NCBI GenBank assembly: GCA_965659025.1
Contig: CBFHTW010000001.1
Span: 1-56,442, forward strand
Source of the DNA: Minisyncoccia bacterium
GTDB taxonomy: Bacteria > Patescibacteriota > Minisyncoccia > Phycocordibacterales > UBA2100
Direction: 5' to 3'
Length of the DNA stretch: 56,442 nucleotides
Both the position numbers and the translations under genes were made by a program. The notes under the pieces are model-generated. The model worked only from the letters and a program-made list of their open reading frames with translations. It was not told the origin of the DNA and searched no databases. Positions 9,739 through 56,113 of the stretch are shown piece after piece (positions within the stretch are counted from its first letter, which is position 1; the number at the start of each line of letters is the position of its first letter).

Positions 9739-11288
9739 TGCGCCGCGGGAAGTTGAATGAAAAATGTGGAGCCCTTACCGGCGCCTGGCGATTCCACCCA
9801 TACGCGTCCGTGCATCCCTTCAATAAGATTCTTGGCGAGATAGAGGCCAACGCCAGTGCCTAAGAGATTCGCCTTTGCCGCATCAGCTCTGGAAAACTTT
9901 TTAAAGAGATTCGGAATCGTTTCCGCGGGGATTCCCACACCCGTATCAGTGATTGCCACGGTGAACGTATCATCAGTGTGCTGTTCTACGGATACGGTGA
10001 CAGACCCTTCTTTCGTGTATTTGAGGGAGTTGTCTATAAAGATACCTATCACCTCTTTTACCTTTTGGGCATCACCTAGTACGCAGTAGTCTTTGCTCAG
10101 ATCAATATGCGAAATGAGCTTGAGCCCGTGTTGTGACGCGTGTGGTTGGAATTCACCGACCACAGTTGCGGCACATGAGCCAACATCAAATGAAGTGAGA
10201 GAATACTGCAACTGTCCAAGCTCCAGCTTGGACTTATTGAGAAATTGCGTAATGAGCGAAAGTACATCGTGCGTGGATACTTGTATCTTCTCCACCGTCC
10301 CCTTCGCCGCGGTATCTAGCGTGCCCGCATCACCCTCCAAAAGTAGGGTCGCAAAATTTTGGATGCGTGTAATTGGATTGCGTATTTCATGCGAAGCAAA
10401 GGTCATAAACTCGGACTTGTCATTGCTGAGTTGCTCAATACGCTCTCTTTGTTCCACCTCGCGGTATTCAGCTTTGATAAGTACCACGCTTGCCACGGCA
10501 ACAGCGATGAAGAATACCGATCTGAAGAATAATTCCAACGTCCCATCCGATAGGCCAACCTGTATCAAAAGTACCACGTTTATGAACGTAACAAGCAATT
10601 CCGTTGAAAGCGCCCTAAGATTAAAGAGACGATGTTTAAGCGCCGCGTATGAAAGAAGGAAAGGAAATACTGCCACTAAGATATTCCCATACGGCAGGAC
10701 CGGAATATCATACCAAAGCAAAAAATTACTGAATCCACCACCAAAACCAAAGAGTGCGCCTATGAGAATGTATACAGCCTGGCCCCTCTTGGACGAGGAG
10801 TGGTTCTTGAGTTCCGAGAATAACAGATGTAACGCAAGTATGAGACATCCGGAATAAATAATAAAAAGATAAAAAGTGTACGCAGGCCCGGCATCGGGCC
10901 AAAATGGAAAGATTAGTTTTGGCCTGATGTCAGCTATTACATACTGTGTACGACTTAACAGTATGACTGCAACAGCTGAAATATGGATAAAGGTCCGAAA
11001 TACGTAAAAACGATGACTTTGACCGAGGATTGTGAGAGTCCACTCAAGAAATAATGTGGGTATAAGCACAGATGCCGCAGCGAGCAACTGTATCCACAAC
11101 AGTGCAGTGGCTTCGTCGGAGGCGGACAACCAACGCCAATACGAGAGCGCCCAAATACCCAGGGCAATCGCCATCAAGAGAAAGAGACGATTTGAAACAT
11201 CTTTCCAATTCTTCAGTATCACTATTAAACCAAAAGCAAGCGCAATGACGCCCACAACAAGTCCGGACACTGCAAAGAGTTCAAGCAT
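9735..11288 (-). CDS. Sensor histidine kinase with a polytopic N-terminal membrane domain
   Basis: HisKA H-box (FASHEIRNPIT) and HATPase_c (GTGVGLYLAKNLIEGMHGRVWVES). Roughly 7 TM helices at the N-terminus. Start at the ATG at 11288 overlaps the upstream stop by 8 nt. No response regulator lies in the window. Confidence 0.85.
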   Translation of the reverse strand: MLELFAVSGLVVGVIALAFGLIVILKNWKDVSNRLFLLMAIALGIWALSYWRWLSASDEATALLWIQLLAAASVLIPTLFLEWTLTILGQSHRFYVFRTFIHISAVAVILLSRTQYVIADIRPKLIFPFWPDAGPAYTFYLFIIYSGCLILALHLLFSELKNHSSSKRGQAVYILIGALFGFGGGFSNFLLWYDIPVLPYGNILVAVFPFLLSYAALKHRLFNLRALSTELLVTFINVVLLIQVGLSDGTLELFFRSVFFIAVAVASVVLIKAEYREVEQRERIEQLSNDKSEFMTFASHEIRNPITRIQNFATLLLEGDAGTLDTAAKGTVEKIQVSTHDVLSLITQFLNKSKLELGQLQYSLTSFDVGSCAATVVGEFQPHASQHGLKLISHIDLSKDYCVLGDAQKVKEVIGIFIDNSLKYTKEGSVTVSVEQHTDDTFTVAITDTGVGIPAETIPNLFKKFSRADAAKANLLGTGVGLYLAKNLIEGMHGRVWVESPGAGKGSTFFIQLPAAH

Positions 11289-12174
11289 GGTCCTTTTGGG
11301 CAACAACAATTGTGTGTATATTCAGTGGCTCTACATAGCCGGTAATGTTGTGTTCCTTAAATGCACTCGCCGCGACCAACCCCACAATCTCCTCCGGAGT
11401 ACGGTAAATCATGTCCCAGCCAACTACATTCTTAACGAATCGTTTTTCTTTGTTGTGATTGATGTTCGCGGTAATAAATACACCGTCATCTTCCAACACA
11501 TTGTATATGAGGTCAAAAAGCCCAATGGCCTTAATGTCAGTAAAATAATCCATCAGACCAACCATTTCAACAACAGTGAACTTCTCATTAGCATGCTTGC
11601 CACGTAAATGCTCTCCCGCAGTAGAACATACCCACTCAAGACCACAGGTTAAGTTGCGTTCGCTTGCCAAGATGCGGCTGTACGCAAGCGCCGCCTCATC
11701 TTTATCAAGGAACGTGAGCTTGACACTCGGATTATCTTTCAGACCGAGAGCTACGACTGATTCTATGATGGCGCGCGATGAGCCGGCGGCAATACTCAAG
11801 ATGTGCACTCGCTTTCCATCACGAATTCGGCGATGGATTGCTTTCTTCACTTCTCTTTCAACAATTCTAAGGCGGTTACGAACTGCCCTTGCATTTAAGG
11901 TACCAAACCACACCCGAGCAAAAATCTTTTGCAACAATCCATGTGATGTCTCTGGATATCCATAGTTATATAGCGCCTCTAGTGCTCTGTATTGTGTGGC
12001 ATAGCGCACAACCGTCTCTGCCGATTTATGCGTCCTTCGAATCATAGAGCGAGACGATGCCGGAAGCGCATTGAGAAAAGGAACCAAAAAAATATTCAAG
12101 GTGCGGCGGCGCACTGACGGATACTCAAAGACAAGCTCTTTATCAGAGTCTTGAAATACAGTGTGCGATGCCAT
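11281..12174 (-). CDS. Putative class I SAM-dependent methyltransferase-like protein
   Basis: 297 aa. ILSIAAGSSRAIIE...FLDKDEAAL...VEMVGLMDYF...DDGVFITANI resembles a Rossmann-fold methyltransferase. The region is visibly AT-richer than its flanks. Confidence 0.45.
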   Translation of the reverse strand: MASHTVFQDSDKELVFEYPSVRRRTLNIFLVPFLNALPASSRSMIRRTHKSAETVVRYATQYRALEALYNYGYPETSHGLLQKIFARVWFGTLNARAVRNRLRIVEREVKKAIHRRIRDGKRVHILSIAAGSSRAIIESVVALGLKDNPSVKLTFLDKDEAALAYSRILASERNLTCGLEWVCSTAGEHLRGKHANEKFTVVEMVGLMDYFTDIKAIGLFDLIYNVLEDDGVFITANINHNKEKRFVKNVVGWDMIYRTPEEIVGLVAASAFKEHNITGYVEPLNIHTIVVAQKDHA

Positions 12175-12182
12175 GGTACTTA

Positions 12183-12869
12183 TTATTTTAACCCACCTAT
12201 AGCCGCCATCGCTAATTGCACGGCATTTTTGTATTTTGATGCATCATCTATATATTGTTCGGTGAATAGACTATCTACATATAGGGGTTGGCCGAATGTT
12301 AATGTCATGTGCCTTTTGAACCCAAGAAATGTAGCTGGACGGATACCAAATACTCCACCAATATACACCGGAACTATTGGTACACGGGTTGCGTCACATA
12401 AAAACGCGACTCCTCCCCGCCCCTCTTGTAGTGAACCATCTTTGGTGATGCGCCCTTCCGGAAAGATACAAATACTTCCTCCGTCCTTCAATATCTCAAC
12501 ATGTTGATTAAGAGCTAATGCATAATTTTTGTGTCCCGCTGTATATGTGTACGCCCCCCATGCGGGAAAAAACCATGCTGTGGTGTAGAGAAATCTGCGC
12601 CACCCAAATGAAACGTCATCAAAAAATTTATTCGGAGCGGCAACATAAAAAAGGGGTGCAAATCGCCCGAGTGGATTAAGAGCGGCGGTGAGTATGATTG
12701 AATCAAGTTCACTTGTGTGATTGACGGCAAAAATTGCTTGACGTATGTCGCGTAAATTTTCAATACCACGCACTTCAAATCTACAAAATATATTAAATAA
12801 CAAGCGTGTAGGTCCCCATGCAAGCGTTTGCAGAATGCGCGGTGGCCACGAGTAGAATTTTTTATACAT
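12183..12869 (-). CDS. plsC: 1-acyl-sn-glycerol-3-phosphate acyltransferase family (PlsC-like)
   Basis: HX4D motif (NHTSELD) and FPEGRITKDG motif. Confidence 0.8.
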   Translation of the reverse strand: MYKKFYSWPPRILQTLAWGPTRLLFNIFCRFEVRGIENLRDIRQAIFAVNHTSELDSIILTAALNPLGRFAPLFYVAAPNKFFDDVSFGWRRFLYTTAWFFPAWGAYTYTAGHKNYALALNQHVEILKDGGSICIFPEGRITKDGSLQEGRGGVAFLCDATRVPIVPVYIGGVFGIRPATFLGFKRHMTLTFGQPLYVDSLFTEQYIDDASKYKNAVQLAMAAIGGLK

Positions 12870-15070: not shown

Positions 15071-15123
15071 TGGTGTTCAGTATATCAAACAAAACAAGGC
15101 TGTGAGCGAAAAGTGGGAGGACT

Positions 15124-15175
15124 GTAATTAAAATCCAAGCGAGGAACGGCATTCGCTATGTGGGGCTTGCGGAGC
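15124..15175. repeat. 52-bp direct repeat, copy 1 (rnc-smc intergenic region)
   Basis: GTAATTAAAATCCAAGCGAGGAACGGCATTCGCTATGTGGGGCTTGCGGAGC. 49/52 identical to copy 2 by eye. Confidence 0.85.
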
Positions 15176-15269
15176 ATTATTCAAAGACAGCGAGAGAGCA
15201 CACCCAATATTGGAGTCTCGCGCAGGGCGTCGCCTGCCTGCCGGCAGGCAGGGCCCGATTGAAGGGGTT

Positions 15270-15321
15270 GTAATTAAAATCCAAGCGAGGGGTGGCATTC
15301 GCTATGTGGGGCTTGCGGAGC
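15270..15321. repeat. 52-bp direct repeat, copy 2
   Basis: GTAATTAAAATCCAAGCGAGGGGTGGCATTCGCTATGTGGGGCTTGCGGAGC, 146 bp downstream of copy 1. Confidence 0.85.
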
Positions 15322-23653: not shown

Positions 23654-25141
23654 TTATCCGCGAGAGATAACAATCTTTGTGCCTTCCATCTGCATGGTGT
23701 CGGCAGTCTGTGAGACCGTCGGCACAAATGCTGGCGCAAAGACTGTACGCTGTGTGATAACAGGCTCCTCACGCTGTTCTTTCTTGACAACGGCCGCCAC
23801 TTCCGAAGAAGCCGCAACTGGTGTTACGAAGAGCGGTGATTGTGCCTTGCGCATGGTGGTGCGGCGCGGGAGTGTCCCGGCGAAACCGCCAAGAGCACCG
23901 GCCACAAGACCAAGAGCCGAAGAGCGAGCGTACACGATAAGGTACGCGGCAGAGGCGGCGAAGGCCGCAAGCAATACCCAGTAGAGTGTGTTGCCCACGA
24001 TGCCGAGATCAAAGCCTGTGTACGGCACCGAAGAGAGCGCCACGTACTGAGAGGCAGAAACCTGAAGCGACACACTGCATGTAGCAGAACCGTTCGGGCC
24101 ATACACGGTGAGCGCGTACACGCGGCTTGCCTCTGGCTCTACCGAGAGCGTGCCGGAAGTCTGTACCGCGCCGATGCCGTCGGAAAGCGTTGCGCTTGTT
24201 GCGCCGTAGCTCGTCCAAGAGAGGGTTGCGTTGTCACCATCGCGGATAGCCGTCGGATTGGCAGAGATACTGCACGAAGGCGTCTGGCTTTGGTAATACG
24301 TCGGCTGATACACCGGGTATGTGTTGTTGTAGTTGTACACATACGGGTACGAGGTCTGGTAGTTGGTGTATGTCGTCGGGTACACCGGGTACGTCTGCGG
24401 GTAGGTGTACTGCACGGTGTACTGCGGCGTCGCGTACGCAAGGTGCGTTACATTGGTGTTGCCGCTATTTACCACATTGGTGTTACAGCTGTTGCCTGTG
24501 CATGTGTTGATGACCGAAGAACCACCACCCGTAGGATACGAAGGGTAGCTTGGGTACGAAGGGTAGCTTGGCGTCGTCGGGCGCGCGATCTGCACAGGCT
24601 GTGCGATCTGCACCGGGCGGGCAATGCTCGCCGTGGAGACGCTGTAGCCGTATGACGGTGTGGACACCGAGATCGGCGTGGAGTAGGAGTAGGTCGTGTC
24701 GTAGCCATACGTGTCGGCGTAGCCATCGTAGAAGGACGAGCATGTGTAGCACGAGCCATCTGCGGCGTAGCCGTCAAAGCCATCGTAGGCGTAACCGTCA
24801 AAGCCAGTGCCAGCATATCCGTCGTAGCCATTGTAGGCGTAGCCGTCAAAGCCCGTGCCAGCATATCCGTCGTAGCCATCGTAGGCGTAGCCGTCAAAGC
24901 CCGTGCCCGCATAACCGTCAAAACCATTGTAGGCGTAGCCATCGTAGCCAGAGTAGCCGTCGTAGCCGGAGTAGCCATCGAAGCCGGAGTATCCGTCAAA
25001 ACCGGAATACCCATCAAAGCCCGAGTAGCCGTCAAAGCCACTGTAGCCGTCAAACTCCTGCGCATACGCAATAGGAGCAACTGCAAGTACAGCTACAACC
25101 ACAAGTGCGAGCACATTTCCTTTCGTAATGAGATTTTTCAT
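23654..25141 (-). CDS. Secreted Tyr/Gly/Asp-rich tandem-repeat surface protein with an Ig-like domain, a VPYTG motif and C-terminal TM segments
   Basis: Start at the ATG at 25141 (MKNLITKG...). Signal peptide LAVAPIAYA-QE. 14 [FY]DGY repeat units, then PVQIA x2 and PSY x4 repeats. A beta-rich domain (CSISANPTAIRDGDNATLSWTS...), then LSSVPYTGFD followed by the hydrophobic stretch LYWVLLAAFAASAAYLIVYA. Confidence 0.8.
   Translation of the reverse strand: MKNLITKGNVLALVVVAVLAVAPIAYAQEFDGYSGFDGYSGFDGYSGFDGYSGFDGYSGYDGYSGYDGYAYNGFDGYAGTGFDGYAYDGYDGYAGTGFDGYAYNGYDGYAGTGFDGYAYDGFDGYAADGSCYTCSSFYDGYADTYGYDTTYSYSTPISVSTPSYGYSVSTASIARPVQIAQPVQIARPTTPSYPSYPSYPSYPTGGGSSVINTCTGNSCNTNVVNSGNTNVTHLAYATPQYTVQYTYPQTYPVYPTTYTNYQTSYPYVYNYNNTYPVYQPTYYQSQTPSCSISANPTAIRDGDNATLSWTSYGATSATLSDGIGAVQTSGTLSVEPEASRVYALTVYGPNGSATCSVSLQVSASQYVALSSVPYTGFDLGIVGNTLYWVLLAAFAASAAYLIVYARSSALGLVAGALGGFAGTLPRRTTMRKAQSPLFVTPVAASSEVAAVVKKEQREEPVITQRTVFAPAFVPTVSQTADTMQMEGTKIVISRG
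24755..25054 (-). repeat. In-frame tandem coding repeats (18-nt units, then 24-nt units)
   Basis: Encodes FDGYSG x5, YDGYSG, then eight 8-aa units ([FY]DGYA[YG][NDT]G). These repeats produce the spurious alternative-frame ORFs in the track. Confidence 0.85.
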
Positions 25142-53611: not shown

Positions 53612-54184
53612 ATGCACAATAGAAAGACATGGGCATATATTATTGGTGTTGCCCTCGGAGACGGAAATCTTTCTAATCCAAATGGAAGAGCAATACGTTT
53701 ACGTGTCACCTGTGATGCTCGGTACCCCATTCTTGCAAAAGACATTGTGAAAGCACTCAAAACAGTATTGCCCAAAAATGTTGTTTCTATAGTACAGGCA
53801 CCCAGAAAAACGTATTTCAATATAAGCGTGTATTCAAATCAATTAGGCAAATGGATACCCTGGAAAGTGGGAAAAGGGACCAAAGAAATACAACGAATCC
53901 GTGTCCCGATGTGGATACGTATACATCAACCATATAGAAAAGAGTGTTTGCGCGGTCTTCTGCAAACAGACGGTAGTATATACAAAGACCGCGGTTACCT
54001 CATGGTGAACTTTACAAACCACGTCCGAGGCCTCGCGATTGATACATATAACATGCTTGTGGCATCTGGGTACGCCCCAACCATATCAAAAACGACTGAA
54101 CGTAATGGAAAGACGAAATATACAATACGAATCGCGCGCCAAACGGAACGGCTCATTAAAGATATTGGATTGTTTAAATTATGA
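53612..54184 (+). CDS. Free-standing double-motif LAGLIDADG homing endonuclease
   Basis: Motif 1 WAYIIGVALGDGNL and motif 2 ECLRGLLQTDGSIY, about 100 aa apart. Markedly AT-richer than its flanks. The ATG lies 2 nt after the tRNA-Leu 3' end, and the stop overlaps the miaA start (ATGA). Confidence 0.85.
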   Translation: MHNRKTWAYIIGVALGDGNLSNPNGRAIRLRVTCDARYPILAKDIVKALKTVLPKNVVSIVQAPRKTYFNISVYSNQLGKWIPWKVGKGTKEIQRIRVPMWIRIHQPYRKECLRGLLQTDGSIYKDRGYLMVNFTNHVRGLAIDTYNMLVASGYAPTISKTTERNGKTKYTIRIARQTERLIKDIGLFKL

Positions 54185-55122
54185 ATTCACCTACCACCCG
54201 GAACGGAGCACTCGTGGAAAAACTGACTAAAATACTTATTGTTGTAGGGCCGACGGCCAGCGGCAAGAGCGCGCTGGGGGTGGAAATCGCCCGCGCGCTC
54301 GGCGGTGAAATTATCTCCGCCGATTCGCGGCAGGTGTACCGCGGTCTTGATATCGGCACGGGCAAGATCACCACGCGCGAAATGCGCGGCGTCCCCCATT
54401 ACCTACTTGATGTGTCCTCTCCCAAACGCATCTTCACGGCGCATGATTTTGTCACAAAGGGACGCCGTGCGATCGCAGATATTGCCGCCCGGCGCAACAT
54501 ACCGATTATTGTGGGAGGTACCGGATTTTACATTGACGCGCTTGTAGGACGCATATCATTGCCTGATGTGCCTCCGGATACTGCGTTTCGCACAAAGATG
54601 CGCACGAAGACGGCAAAACAGCTTTTTGCGCTCCTGAAACAAAAGGACCCTGTGCGCGCTCGGAGCATGAATGAAAGTGAACGTGGCAATCCTGTGCGCC
54701 TCATTCGCGCTCTTGAAATCGCTCGCTCGCTCGGGAAAAACCCGAAGCCGCGAAACAATACCGCCTATTCCGCGCAGTGGATTGGAATCCAGCCAAGCGA
54801 TAATGTGATACAAAAGAACATCTCACGGCGTCTGGACGCTCGCCTGCGACAAGGAATGATCGCCGAGGGACGCCGCCTGCACGCTGGCGGACTTTCATAC
54901 AAGCGCATGGAACATCTTGGGCTTGAGTACCGCGCACTCGCCCGACACCTGCAAGGGAAGACCAACCGCGCACAGATGCGCGAGGAACTCCTGTGCGACA
55001 TCCTCGCCTATGCGAAACGGCAAAAAACCTACTGGAAACGCAACAAAAACATCCGCTGGTTTTCCGATGCCAAAGCGGCGCTCCGGTGGGCTATAGCTTC
55101 TTCCAGCGCGACATCCTCTTGA
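54181..55122 (+). CDS. miaA: tRNA dimethylallyltransferase
   Basis: P-loop VVGPTASGKS, then ISADSRQVYRGLDIGTGK. Confidence 0.92.
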   Translation: MNSPTTRNGALVEKLTKILIVVGPTASGKSALGVEIARALGGEIISADSRQVYRGLDIGTGKITTREMRGVPHYLLDVSSPKRIFTAHDFVTKGRRAIADIAARRNIPIIVGGTGFYIDALVGRISLPDVPPDTAFRTKMRTKTAKQLFALLKQKDPVRARSMNESERGNPVRLIRALEIARSLGKNPKPRNNTAYSAQWIGIQPSDNVIQKNISRRLDARLRQGMIAEGRRLHAGGLSYKRMEHLGLEYRALARHLQGKTNRAQMREELLCDILAYAKRQKTYWKRNKNIRWFSDAKAALRWAIASSSATSS

Positions 55123-55175
55123 CAAAGTCAAAAATGAGCATACAATGCGTTCAGTCAGTATTTTGGGAGTAACCA

Positions 55176-55847
55176 ATGAAAAAGCGGATGATGCTGTCCA
55201 GTGTCTTCTCGCGGCCCCTCGACGAGCTCGAGAAGTTGCCTGAAAAACAGTTTCAGCAAGCGGCCAACGAAGCGGGAGTCACCGCGGAGAAATTCCGTGA
55301 GATTCTTGCCCGAACCCGTGCAACATATCAGGCGTGCGAAGCAAAGAAAGCCGCCATCGCGAAAGCGGAGGCGGAGCTGAATGGCAAGTTCCGGTTCATA
55401 GAGTATCGTTTGCGAGTTATCTTGGCACGCATGGACCTCACACCGGAACGGAGACTTGTCTCTGAACAACTCAAGCAGAAAGCATATAATCTGCTGGAAC
55501 AACAAGGAGAAGGAAGAGAACCGACGAACAGGTTCATGGAATCTACGTTGATTATGTACGAAGGTCGCCTTTTTACTCTCTGTCAGTCTCGGTCTCTCCA
55601 AGAAGCACTTGAGGTACTTTTTGGCGAGTGCAAAACTCAGGTGGTAAATTTGAGCAACATTCCTTCTTTCGGAGAGGCTTGTTACCGTGCCTACCGCGCT
55701 GTTAAAAAACAACTGCGCGGAGATCGCGGTAGCTCTAACGGTCTTCCCATTGAAGGGCCGGCTCTCGTATACAGCGTAAACATTGGCCTCAACTTTCCAG
55801 CTCACCCGAGACCTCGTCGCTACAACGACGAACTCGAGCACTACTAG
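55176..55847 (+). CDS. Hypothetical protein (223 aa) inside the miaA 3'-end duplication
   Basis: GGGAG SD 7 nt upstream of the ATG, and a perfect terminator overlaps the stop codon. I recognise no family. The plus strand is chosen over the codon-aligned antisense ORF 55155-55841. Confidence 0.6.
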   Translation: MKKRMMLSSVFSRPLDELEKLPEKQFQQAANEAGVTAEKFREILARTRATYQACEAKKAAIAKAEAELNGKFRFIEYRLRVILARMDLTPERRLVSEQLKQKAYNLLEQQGEGREPTNRFMESTLIMYEGRLFTLCQSRSLQEALEVLFGECKTQVVNLSNIPSFGEACYRAYRAVKKQLRGDRGSSNGLPIEGPALVYSVNIGLNFPAHPRPRRYNDELEHY

Positions 55848-55876
55848 TCGGCATCCTTTAGGATGCCGACTTTTTT
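55847..55876 (+). terminator. Rho-independent terminator
   Basis: GTCGGCATCC-TTTA-GGATGCCGAC followed by TTTTTT. Confidence 0.85.
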
Positions 55877-55913
55877 AATTTGGAAATATTCTCAGTGAAG
55901 CCGAGGTTTTAGA

Positions 55914-56001
55914 CAACAAAAACATCCGCTGGTTCTTCGATGCCAAGGCGGCACTCCGATGGGCTACAACTTCTTCCAGCGCGGTGCGAAACGAATCATG
56001 A
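55914..56001 (+). pseudogene. Displaced 3' fragment of miaA
   Basis: Reads NKNIRWFFDAKAALRWATTSSSAVRNES-stop, against the live miaA C-terminus NKNIRWFSDAKAALRWAIASSSATSS-stop. A weak hairpin at 56011-56027 follows. Confidence 0.7.
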
Positions 56002-56042
56002 ATGAAAACAGCGGCCACAAGGGCCGCAATTTCCATTGGGTG

Positions 56043-56113
56043 CGGGCGCTGAGGGAATCGAACCCCCACTGGCGGTTTTGGAGACCGCTGTTCTACCACT
56101 AAACTAAGCGCCC
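56043..56113 (-). tRNA. tRNA-Trp (anticodon CCA)
   Basis: GGGCGCTTAGTTTAGTGGTAGAACAGCGGTCTCCAAAACCGCCAGTGGGGGTTCGATTCCCTCAGCGCCCG folds as a cloverleaf. It lies downstream of rpmG. Confidence 0.9.

Follow-up and report, generated by a model that had tools for sequence, protein, structure and literature searches.

Phage morons are autonomous promoter-gene-terminator units, and to our knowledge long flanking target duplications are not a described feature of these elements. The prophage e14 lies as foreign DNA inside the housekeeping gene icd, at its 3' end; the proximal copy of the gene end completes icd and the distal copy, icdC, is an orphaned C-terminal fragment (PMC13626634, citing Hill et al. 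1989). Decayed ICEs or IMEs that keep attL and attR form the cis-mobilizable elements, or CIMEs (PMC5704250). In T4-type phages, the ORFans of PeSL cassettes lie between direct repeats; homologous recombination can release them as small circles, which may then insert at other places with no dedicated recombinase (PMC2839356).

Here, we describe a locus that shares features with all of these systems. The window, which is the whole analysed stretch of 56,442 nucleotides, comes from an uncultured Kaiserbacteria bacterium and carries a single-gene cassette at the end of the tRNA-modification gene miaA. As in e14 or phage 21 in the icd gene of E. coli, a housekeeping gene has its end duplicated, and the two imperfect direct copies enclose foreign DNA. 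However, the e14 prophage (~15 kb) encodes an integrase and an excisionase, and its gene copy runs through the stop codon, whereas the insert in the window is 0.8 kb long, contains one gene and encodes no recombinase. Moreover, the homology in the window ends 12 nt before the new stop (TSS and stop versus VRNES and stop), and a related cassette uses a different repeat. The icd type of integration is thus matched in the 3'-end repeat and in the unoccupied site of relatives, but neither in the recombinase nor in the replacement through the stop. The insert resembles a CIME in being a repeat-bounded segment at a gene 3' end without integration or transfer genes (PMC5704250). It differs in that no parental ICE or IME using this att site turned up; the window repeat and that of the related cassette are candidate att sites at most, unrelated in the two genomes, and no integrase-bearing insert was present at the miaA/tRNA-Trp site in the related loci examined.

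With PeSL cassettes, the locus shares a single ORFan gene between direct repeats and the lack of a dedicated recombinase. PeSL repeats are nevertheless promoter-terminator modules that recur genome-wide, whereas the window repeats consist of coding sequence from the local target and enclose the promoter and terminator, and no circular form has been observed. The cassette resembles a moron in its anatomy, one gene between resident genes that brings both a sigma-70 promoter and an intrinsic terminator, a layout of one autonomous ORF that is common to the family members. Unlike a moron, the cassette resides in a CPR chromosome and not in a recognisable prophage.

The miaA end and its orphaned copy

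The current miaA ORF (54181-55122, + strand, 313 aa; ORF list) matches the Pfam IPPT family over residues 51-287 (E = 5e-55). Its final segment, which encodes NKNIRWFSDAKAALRWAIASSSA and is contiguous with the miaA body, forms copy 1 of the direct repeat (55041-55110, + strand). Copy 2 (55914-55983, + strand) is identical to it at 63/70 positions without gaps, at a spacing of 873 nt, and no other such repeat exists in the region. The local alignment scores 105, against a mean of 20 and a maximum of 26 for shuffled flanks, and the repeat edges are sharp, with perfect blocks of 21 nt at the left end and 14 nt at the right end. The two copies have no 31-mer in common. The same arrangement was found in an independent Logan contig of 11.3 kb (L001, 99.95% identical) and in a second Logan contig, 975 nt long, which came up in three samples (L002, 100% identical). 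The first-pass annotation had described a 63/70 duplication of the miaA 3' end around an inserted gene and had named an assembly artefact as the finding that would undo it; the alignment and the independent contigs confirm the former and make the latter unlikely. A simple tandem duplication was ruled out, as the sequences 3' of copy 1 and copy 2 are unrelated. A diversity-generating retroelement (VR/TR) was rejected as well, since the differences are not at adenines and the region has no reverse transcriptase.

Close relatives indicate which copy is the older one. In L084, L085/86 and L087, whose miaA products are 89%, 79% and 75% identical to that of the window, the segment is single-copy and is followed by GTGCGAA.CG.ATCAT, which is what follows copy 2 in the window. 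Read in the miaA frame, copy 2 continues into the ancestral tail VRNES and stop (55984-56001, + strand), to which the miaA ends of L084, L085 and L087 are collinear, and stops at the TGA at 55999-56001 (...RWATTSSSAVRNES). Because these relatives possess one copy with a copy-2-type tail, copy 2 and the following 18 nt represent the orphaned ancestral miaA terminus, as had been proposed for a displaced original end adjoining tRNA-Trp. The miaA body is ancestral too, and only its final four codons (TSS and stop, 55111-55122) come from the inserted DNA, as judged from the tail translation.

Convergent with miaA and overlapping it lies the relic of a Zn-ribbon gene, identified by translation and by comparison with relatives, of which the last 14 codons and the stop are left (FSFMIRFAPRWKKL; 55964-56008, - strand). 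The gene is intact in L084, L085, L086 and L087 (69-75 aa), and ~170 nt of it have been deleted in the window lineage. At the deletion site, a GC-rich hairpin (GCGGCC-ACAAG-GGCCGC, 56011-56027) is terminator-like on the - strand. Beside it lies tRNA-Trp(cca) (56042-56113, - strand), which is conserved next to the 3' end of miaA throughout Parcubacteria and abuts or overlaps the miaA stop in many relatives. The relative L087 also carries partial copies of the tRNA-Trp 3' end that are typical of att scars. The ancestral order was tRNA-Leu, miaA (+), a small Zn-ribbon gene (-), tRNA-Trp (-) and L33 (-), with overlapping miaA and Zn-ribbon tails, and a cassette of ~0.8 kb now sits within this overlap, between two direct copies of a 70-bp target segment. 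Copy 2 would also have left the 3' end of the Zn-ribbon gene intact, the gene being lost later except for its 14 codons. The GC-rich hairpin past copy 2, the tRNA-Trp and a LAGLIDADG ORF upstream of miaA (53612-54184) all agree with their earlier description; this ORF (41% GC) is clearly foreign and lies 0.9 kb from the repeat. The only structured RNAs detected in the region were two tRNAs.

The inserted cassette and its relatives

The inserted segment (55111-55913, + strand, 803 bp) is absent from L084, L085 and L087, is homologous to a cassette on contig L003, and has a GC content of 49% against a window mean of 54%. The core common to the window and L003 cassettes spans ~55118-55888, with unrelated filler to its left (7 nt) and right (25 nt). 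It constitutes a complete transcription unit of ~0.8 kb, comprising a sigma-70-type promoter (TTGACA-16 nt-TACAAT, 11/12; 55119-55146, + strand), the Shine-Dalgarno sequence GGGAG, an ORF of 223 aa (orf223; 55176-55847, + strand; ORF list) and an intrinsic terminator (55846-55881, + strand) with an 11-bp stem, a 4-nt loop (hairpin 55846-55871) and a T-run. The new miaA stop, TGA, falls within the -35 box. The terminator hairpin and tail are kept in the L003 cassette, and the TTGACA box is also present upstream of the family members in L003, L096, L089, L090, L097 and L098. The view of the insert as a foreign, self-contained gene without an integrase is supported. An IS or transposon was rejected: Pfam reported no transposase domain, terminal inverted repeats scored no higher than shuffled background in both the window and L003, and the duplications measure 70 and 88-113 nt.

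The orf223 protein is all-alpha, with a conserved C-terminal tail that is predicted to be disordered (...GPAL.YSVN.GLNFP.HPRPRRYNDELEHY). An AF2 model built from 20 sequences reached a pLDDT of 82.9, compared with 50 for a model from three sequences. No sequence or fold match was found in PDB, BFVD, Pfam, PHROGs or PADLOC, nor by Foldseek, and a role of orf223 as a recombinase was discarded on these grounds. The protein had no match in 50,697 phage records, 72,556 plasmid records or IMG/VR, and alignment searches of IMG/VR and JGI metagenomes yielded no further copies of the cassette. A JGI homologue (P0002), on a 1423-bp contig of JGI 3300045391, is 75% identical, and a scan with a degenerate C-terminal DNA pattern recovered a single JGI contig (L096), whose flanks are short and whose 130-nt downstream flank shows no repeat. 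The 264-aa insert of L087 is unrelated to orf223. The L33 protein of the window, looked up as a lead to sister strains, gave no match.

The closest homologue whose flanking DNA was readable is located on L003 (ENA ERZ27280223 k141_419853). This cassette, 57% identical at the amino acid level, has promoter, ORF and terminator in the same layout. It belongs to a different genome, where the genes around it are unrelated to those of the window and include a DUF7768 gene and one encoding 136 aa, and it is flanked by an imperfect direct repeat of local sequence (9764-9851 and 10705-10792; 88 nt, 92%), with decaying similarity out to ~113 nt. The repeats of the window and L003 are unrelated in sequence, differ in length and share no att-like core. 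The L003 cassette adjoins no miaA fragment, contrary to the idea that the 223-aa gene might always accompany one, and since the repeat around it is another one, the cassette is not specific to miaA. Between the two repeat copies of L003 there are 7 nt differences but a single amino acid change (E/D) in one reading frame (p ~0.0004-0.005 per frame). This is the pattern of homologous coding copies and not of decay, although it could also arise in place if a functional peptide of ~34 aa were made from both copies. The L003 contig also carries a large serine recombinase, a D12 methylase and an HTH_17 protein. Members further out in the family whose flanks were long enough to judge (L088, L089, L090-95) had no flanking repeat.

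Routes of insertion

Very probably, the cassette was inserted with duplication of its target, copy 2 is the ancestral miaA end, and the cassette exists in more than one genomic context. Both findings that could have spoken against mobility, a lack of empty sites in related genomes and the confinement of the gene to one arrangement, turned out otherwise: L084, L085/86 and L087 are unoccupied and L003 carries a homologue of orf223. The bracketing of both the window and the L003 cassette by unrelated repeats hints that the cassette is a mobile, moron-like unit and that the bracketing repeat is the join signature of its insertion.

The most likely route, to which we assign a probability of about 0.4, is a small circle carrying the cassette and one copy of the target segment, which would enter the chromosome by a Campbell-type single crossover within that segment. 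The recombination function could be host homologous recombination or could be supplied in trans. Conversely, recombination between the repeat copies would release an 873-bp circle with the modelled junction ...GGTTTTAGA, repeat, ACATCCTCTTGACA..., and the modelled deletion product would consist of the miaA body, one hybrid repeat and GTGCGAAACGAATCAT. Unrelated repeats of differing length fit recombination through any homology that the circle happens to carry and do not fit a fixed-stagger transposase. The single-copy miaA ends of relatives, the conserved synteny with tRNA-Trp, the Zn-ribbon gene that is intact there and a relic here, the agreement of independent assemblies, the complete promoter and terminator, the bracketing and the coding-like pattern in L003 and the lack of a recombinase all count for a single crossover. 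On the other hand, the bracketed cases known are two, more distant family members are unbracketed, and we found no circular junction, no read of an empty site and no second copy of the same cassette with its repeat. The model also needs an earlier step that places the cassette beside a copy of each target. Finally, a 70-base repeat of 90% identity in which no perfect block exceeds 21 nt is marginal for RecA-type recombination.

The seven differences between the window copies (T/C, C/T, A/G, G/A, G/A, T/C and G/A) are all transitions. It had been noted that four of them are synonymous in the miaA frame, which is correct, and concluded that the copies diverged as functional sequence in different lineages. 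The latter conclusion is weakened, as the split of four synonymous to three non-synonymous changes lacks significance (p = 0.05-0.2) and the two copies carry interleaved derived states (three on copy 1, four on copy 2), all of which polarise GC>AT (p ~0.001-0.09, varying with two ambiguous sites), while the rest of miaA is balanced. Such interleaved GC>AT states look more like unfiltered in-place mutation of an identical duplication than like an imported, diverged orthologue, a point against the single crossover. The synonymous/non-synonymous and polarity tests on these seven positions gave weak and conflicting signals.

This brings in a somewhat less probable explanation, a de novo target duplication, in which a linear cassette fragment was joined at a long-staggered break or template switching re-copied 70 nt, so that the copies were identical at birth and diverged in place. 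The interleaved changes and their uniform direction, as expected of recent unfiltered mutation, agree with such an origin, as do the 4:3 ratio, which is compatible with one neutral copy (p = 0.2), the sharp repeat edges, the short unrelated filler at the cassette ends and a repeat sequence that varies by locus, as target duplications do. However, the copies share no derived state against L084, the lengths differ between the two cases and the L003 copies differ almost only synonymously. A rough branch-length calculation of our own, made without a dedicated tool, predicts ~16 changes in copy 2 had it been neutral for the whole branch, against the 4 observed, and leans toward two constrained copies by ~18 to 1 (from dS = 0.47). 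We also know of no bacterial mechanism that produces target duplications of 70-113 nt.

It is rather unlikely that the structure is the scar of an integrase-type element (phage, ICE or IME) with a mimic of the miaA 3' end in its attP, be it one that lost all but one cargo gene in the manner of a CIME or a mini-element mobilised in trans. Large serine recombinases, such as the one on the L003 contig, are not known to make long repeats. The duplication of a gene 3' end around foreign DNA, the gene-proximal position of the perfect 21-nt block, where a core would lie, the presence of that recombinase, the D12 methylase and the HTH_17 protein on the L003 contig, the partial tRNA-Trp copies in L087, and the precedents of e14 with icd/icdC (PMC13626634) and of CIMEs (PMC5704250) would suit it. 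Nevertheless, there is no integrase in or near the insert, none among the L001 gene calls covering 10 kb upstream of orf223, and no integrase-bearing element at the miaA/tRNA-Trp site among the >80 related loci fetched. An integrase hotspot between miaA and tRNA-Trp in more distant relatives was likewise rejected: the inserts of the ten relatives scanned against Pfam at this position are ordinary cellular genes, including those for an acyltransferase, methyltransferase/NUDIX proteins, an MFS transporter, a Mur ligase and a subtilase. The substitute 3' end, which had been called typical of site-specific integration, is no true mimic, as homology stops 12 nt before the new stop and the tail is not homologous. 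One att specificity cannot account for two unrelated repeats, and two independent decays to the same tightly trimmed transcription unit are improbable.

Break repair or co-conversion driven by the upstream LAGLIDADG gene, raised in the first-pass annotation on account of this foreign ORF near the repeat, is very improbable as the source of the arrangement: L014 and L087 have LAGLIDADG remnants at the tRNA-Leu/miaA position without a miaA duplication, L084 and L085 lack both, and the L003 cassette has its own repeat, yet no such gene among the Pfam-annotated calls of its locus. Least probable of all is an assembly artefact in which the miaA-end alleles of two strains were fused, for although the contig is metagenome-derived, the copy differences are SNP-like and the ends of the L002 contig suggest strain heterogeneity, the identical structure occurs in three independent assemblies from different runs, the 975-nt contig spans both junctions, the copies share no 31-mer and an unrelated ENA assembly (L003) shows an analogous structure.

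Implications for gene flow in CPR bacteria

The genomes of CPR bacteria are tiny and contain few recognisable mobile elements, and genetic tools are lacking for these organisms, so that their acquisition of accessory genes is poorly understood. It is tempting, if speculative, to suggest that orf223 cassettes represent an undescribed kind of single-gene movement in CPR/Patescibacteria, which would proceed without a recombinase and with a duplication of 70-113 bp of any target, via a mini-circle with a captured segment or a new long-stagger insertion, and through which overlapping gene ends could be entered without inactivation. If the miaA locus instead reflects a single isolated rearrangement, the structure is no more than an ordinary scar of insertion. 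The competence gene DprA lies ~6 kb upstream, according to the gene calls of the near-identical contig L001, and because of this proximity transformation may contribute to gene flow. If movement by a single crossover is true, a cassette that enters gene ends yet preserves them and needs host recombination alone would provide a simple route of gene flow, one that is invisible to searches based on integrases or transposases. It would also leave a signature that can be scanned for, a single transcription unit bracketed by imperfect repeats of 50-150 nt of the neighbouring gene end.

The insertion site at the end of miaA

The direct repeat described in the first-pass annotation was recovered at exactly the same coordinates, 55041-55110 (copy 1) and 55914-55983 (copy 2), as an ungapped alignment with 63/70 identical positions and sharp edges (score 105 versus a maximum of 26 for shuffled flanks). 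Elsewhere in the 56-kb window, direct repeats of 30 nt or longer are limited to a pair of paralogues, a short pair with 77% identity, an intergenic pair of 53 nt (15123-15175 and 15269-15321; 94% identical, 146 nt apart) and, inside a long minus-strand ORF, a tandem array with a 24-nt period and about 8 or more units (24717-24973). Copy 2 stays open in the miaA frame up to a TGA at 55999-56001, and the 12 nt following copy 1 supply miaA with a new tail, TSS*. The new stop lies within the -35 box of a promoter (TTGACA-16-TACAAT, 55119-55146), followed by a Shine-Dalgarno sequence (SD), orf223 (55176-55847; 223 aa) and a terminator with an 11-bp stem and a T-run. An assembly artefact is ruled out, since the structure recurs in two Logan contigs, one of 11.3 kb assembled from a different run (L001, 99.95% identical) and one of 975 nt present in three samples (L002, 100% identical). 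L002 corresponds to window positions 55025-55999, covering the two repeat copies and, beyond them, precisely 16 nt at either end; on the right it stops where the sequences of the window and of its closest relative, L084, begin to differ. These contig ends suggest that strain variants co-occur at the locus.

The contig comes from an uncultured member of Candidatus Kaiserbacteria (Patescibacteria/CPR). Among species-representative genomes, a MiaA search placed Kaiserbacteria/Paceibacterota MAGs nearest (58-63% amino acid identity); these conserve the order RelA - ParB(-) - tRNA-Leu(caa) - miaA - tRNA-Trp(cca,-) - L33(-), the miaA stop being abutted or even overlapped by tRNA-Trp in many of them. 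A protein search with MiaA gave closer relatives (89%, 79% and 75% amino acid identity), whose contigs (L084, L085/L086 and L087, respectively) were fetched. Empty sites, for which the first-pass annotation had proposed to look, do exist: the 70-nt segment is single-copy in all three identity classes, preceded by the miaA body, like copy 1, and followed by GTGCGAA.CG.ATCAT, like copy 2. The MiaA C-terminus of the closest relative, ...SSSAVRNESYR, matches the copy-2 reading ...SSSAVRNES*. Copy 2 and its 18-nt tail thus represent the orphaned original miaA terminus, and 55111-55913 (803 nt) an insertion. The earlier proposal of a displaced terminus around an inserted gene lacking a recombinase is upheld.

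These relatives (L084-L087) also carry a Zn-ribbon gene of 69-75 aa on the opposite strand, convergent with miaA, whose last ~12 codons (about 38 nt) overlap the miaA end; the cassette therefore entered where two genes overlapped tail to tail. Both would have stayed whole thanks to the duplication, miaA ending in copy 1 and the Zn-ribbon gene in copy 2. Of the latter, the window retains just the final 14 codons on the minus strand (55964-56008, FSFMIRFAPRWKKL*), next to which lie a GC hairpin and tRNA-Trp. Comparison of window 55964-56041 with L084 (1340-1600) and L085 (4332-4600) indicates that ~170 nt of the gene have been deleted, the hairpin standing in their place. This loss probably followed cassette entry.

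We noticed that small duplications seem to recur at the miaA/tRNA-Trp junction, with a 22-nt partial tRNA-Trp duplicate in L029 (3562/3719) and a perfect 54-nt repeat, its copies 152 nt apart, in L022 (2951/3103). L087 carries a 1257-bp single-gene insert between the Zn-ribbon gene and tRNA-Trp (11131-12422, GCA_037963515.1), with a 264-aa ORF unrelated to orf223, its own terminator, a perfect flanking 19-nt direct repeat (TTCTCGCGGACATCTGCGG) overlapping the tRNA 3' end, and an extra 20-nt partial tRNA-Trp copy (12229-12248). The variable inserts between miaA and tRNA-Trp in more distant relatives, of which ten were scanned against Pfam, were rejected as integrative elements, being ordinary cellular genes.

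The free-standing LAGLIDADG ORF upstream of miaA (53612-54184) is a real and foreign gene, with a GC content of 41% against 54% genome-wide; it runs from the tRNA-Leu(caa) 3' end, which its start adjoins, to the miaA ATG, with which its stop overlaps. L084, L085 and L086 lack it. The suggestion that homing endonuclease activity produced the duplication found no support, as L014 and L087 lack any miaA duplication although both have LAGLIDADG remnants at this position, split over two frames in the former and reduced to a C-terminal fragment in the latter.

The orf223 family and a second bracketed cassette

The orf223 product has no match in Pfam, PHROG, PADLOC or PDB sequences, and searches of phage, plasmid and IMG/VR collections returned zero matches. 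A word-indexed search found two relatives only (75% and 57%), and an exhaustive HMMER search gave a family of 18 clusters (205-241 aa), from groundwater and other metagenomes, whose annotatable neighbours are CPR-like (S41 peptidase, T4SS-pilin-domain protein). Members share a C-terminal tail, GPAE.F...LNFP..PRPRR.NDELE.Y, of which the extreme end, PRPRR.NDELE.(Y/F/W), is strikingly conserved in the alignment after a predicted disordered linker, which suggests a docking motif. The AlphaFold model, built from 20 sequences (mean pLDDT 82.9 overall; confident over residues ~10-181), predicts an all-alpha bundle with a disordered tail and has no match in PDB or BFVD (best E = 0.7). Nothing in sequence or fold searches points to a recombinase, transposase or defence protein.

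On the ENA contig L003, the 57% homologue sits among small unannotated genes, about 10 kb from genes for a large serine recombinase, a D12 methylase and an HTH_17 protein. Its cassette has the same layout as in the window, with the terminator hairpin and T-run conserved at the DNA level, and is bracketed by an 88-nt direct repeat (9764-9851 and 10705-10792; 92% identical, spacing 941 nt) whose similarity decays outward, reaching about 113 nt. This repeat resembles that of the window in neither orientation, and L003 contains no miaA fragment; the cassette is thus not specific to miaA. Each L003 copy may encode a ~34-aa peptide on the minus strand (9754-9876 and 10698-10816), (V/L)LHSLDAFGTV(E/D)WKALEREMQWLMVAMPGL..., from a GTG or TTG start preceded by an SD; copy A lies immediately upstream of a DUF7768/nucleoside 2-deoxyribosyltransferase-like gene.

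Bracketing of the same cassette by a repeat in a second genome is the key new result, observed in two cases and with no direct sign of excision. Such long repeats are rare (roughly one to three per 56 kb in the window), and finding two closely related cassettes each within a different one is difficult to put down to chance; their bracketing seems tied to the insertion mode of the cassette. No flanking repeat was seen in more distant family members whose flanks are long enough (L088, L089, L090-95), or in L096 within its 130-nt downstream flank; two further members have flanks too short to judge.

Divergence of the repeat copies and routes of insertion

Read in one minus-strand frame, the seven differences between the L003 copies leave all but one amino acid (E/D) unchanged (dN/dS about 0.08; p about 0.0004-0.005 per frame), which argues that both evolved as coding sequence. 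This could have come about in separate genomes, or in situ, provided that each copy encodes its peptide with its own SD. In the window, four differences are synonymous and three non-synonymous, which is not significant (p = 0.05-0.2); two of the latter amount to a synonymous Leu CTA/TTG switch in the overlapping Zn-ribbon frame. Polarized against outgroups, the differences (55062-55096/55935-55969) are derived three times on copy 1 and four times on copy 2, interleaved, so that they form no simple crossover mosaic; no derived state is common to both copies when compared with L084. Our rough Poisson comparison, using a window-L084 dS of 0.47 and branch counts, favours two constrained copies of similar depth ~18 to 1 over a copy 2 neutral since a late duplication. 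Nevertheless, all seven differences polarize as G:C>A:T transitions (two sites ambiguous; p = 0.001-0.09), whereas the rest of miaA is balanced on the same branch (13 GC>AT versus 14 AT>GC), a bias that looks like unfiltered recent mutation. The two signals pull in opposite directions.

The first-pass annotation had likened the locus to a scar of site-specific integration in which the incoming element brings a substitute 3' end. The insertion and the displaced end stand, but the site-specific reading is not established, since miaA homology ends before the stop codon. The same point weighs against a decayed or trans-mobilized integrase element, which would also need unrelated att sites in the two cases and an independent decay in each down to the same closely trimmed unit; we consider it unlikely. 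De novo duplication of the target is somewhat more plausible, albeit still doubtful. A fixed-stagger transposase is unlikely given the differing duplication lengths, the absence of terminal inverted repeats and the lack of an enzyme, and a DGR VR/TR pair was rejected for the window repeat.

We tentatively prefer, with a probability of about 0.4, a Campbell-type single crossover, as it covers more of the facts than any other route: the repeats are arbitrary in sequence, variable in length and imperfectly identical, those of L003 diverge as coding sequence would, and no enzyme is encoded. Among known systems, the e14/icd-icdC arrangement (PMC13626634), CIMEs (PMC5704250) and the recombinase-free PeSL mini-circles of T4-type phages (PMC2839356) come closest. 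A small circle bearing the cassette and a copy of the target would have joined the chromosome, the recombination function coming from the host or from a trans-acting enzyme. Uptake of such DNA is plausible because DprA is encoded about 6 kb upstream, and a reverse crossover between the repeats would regenerate the circle.
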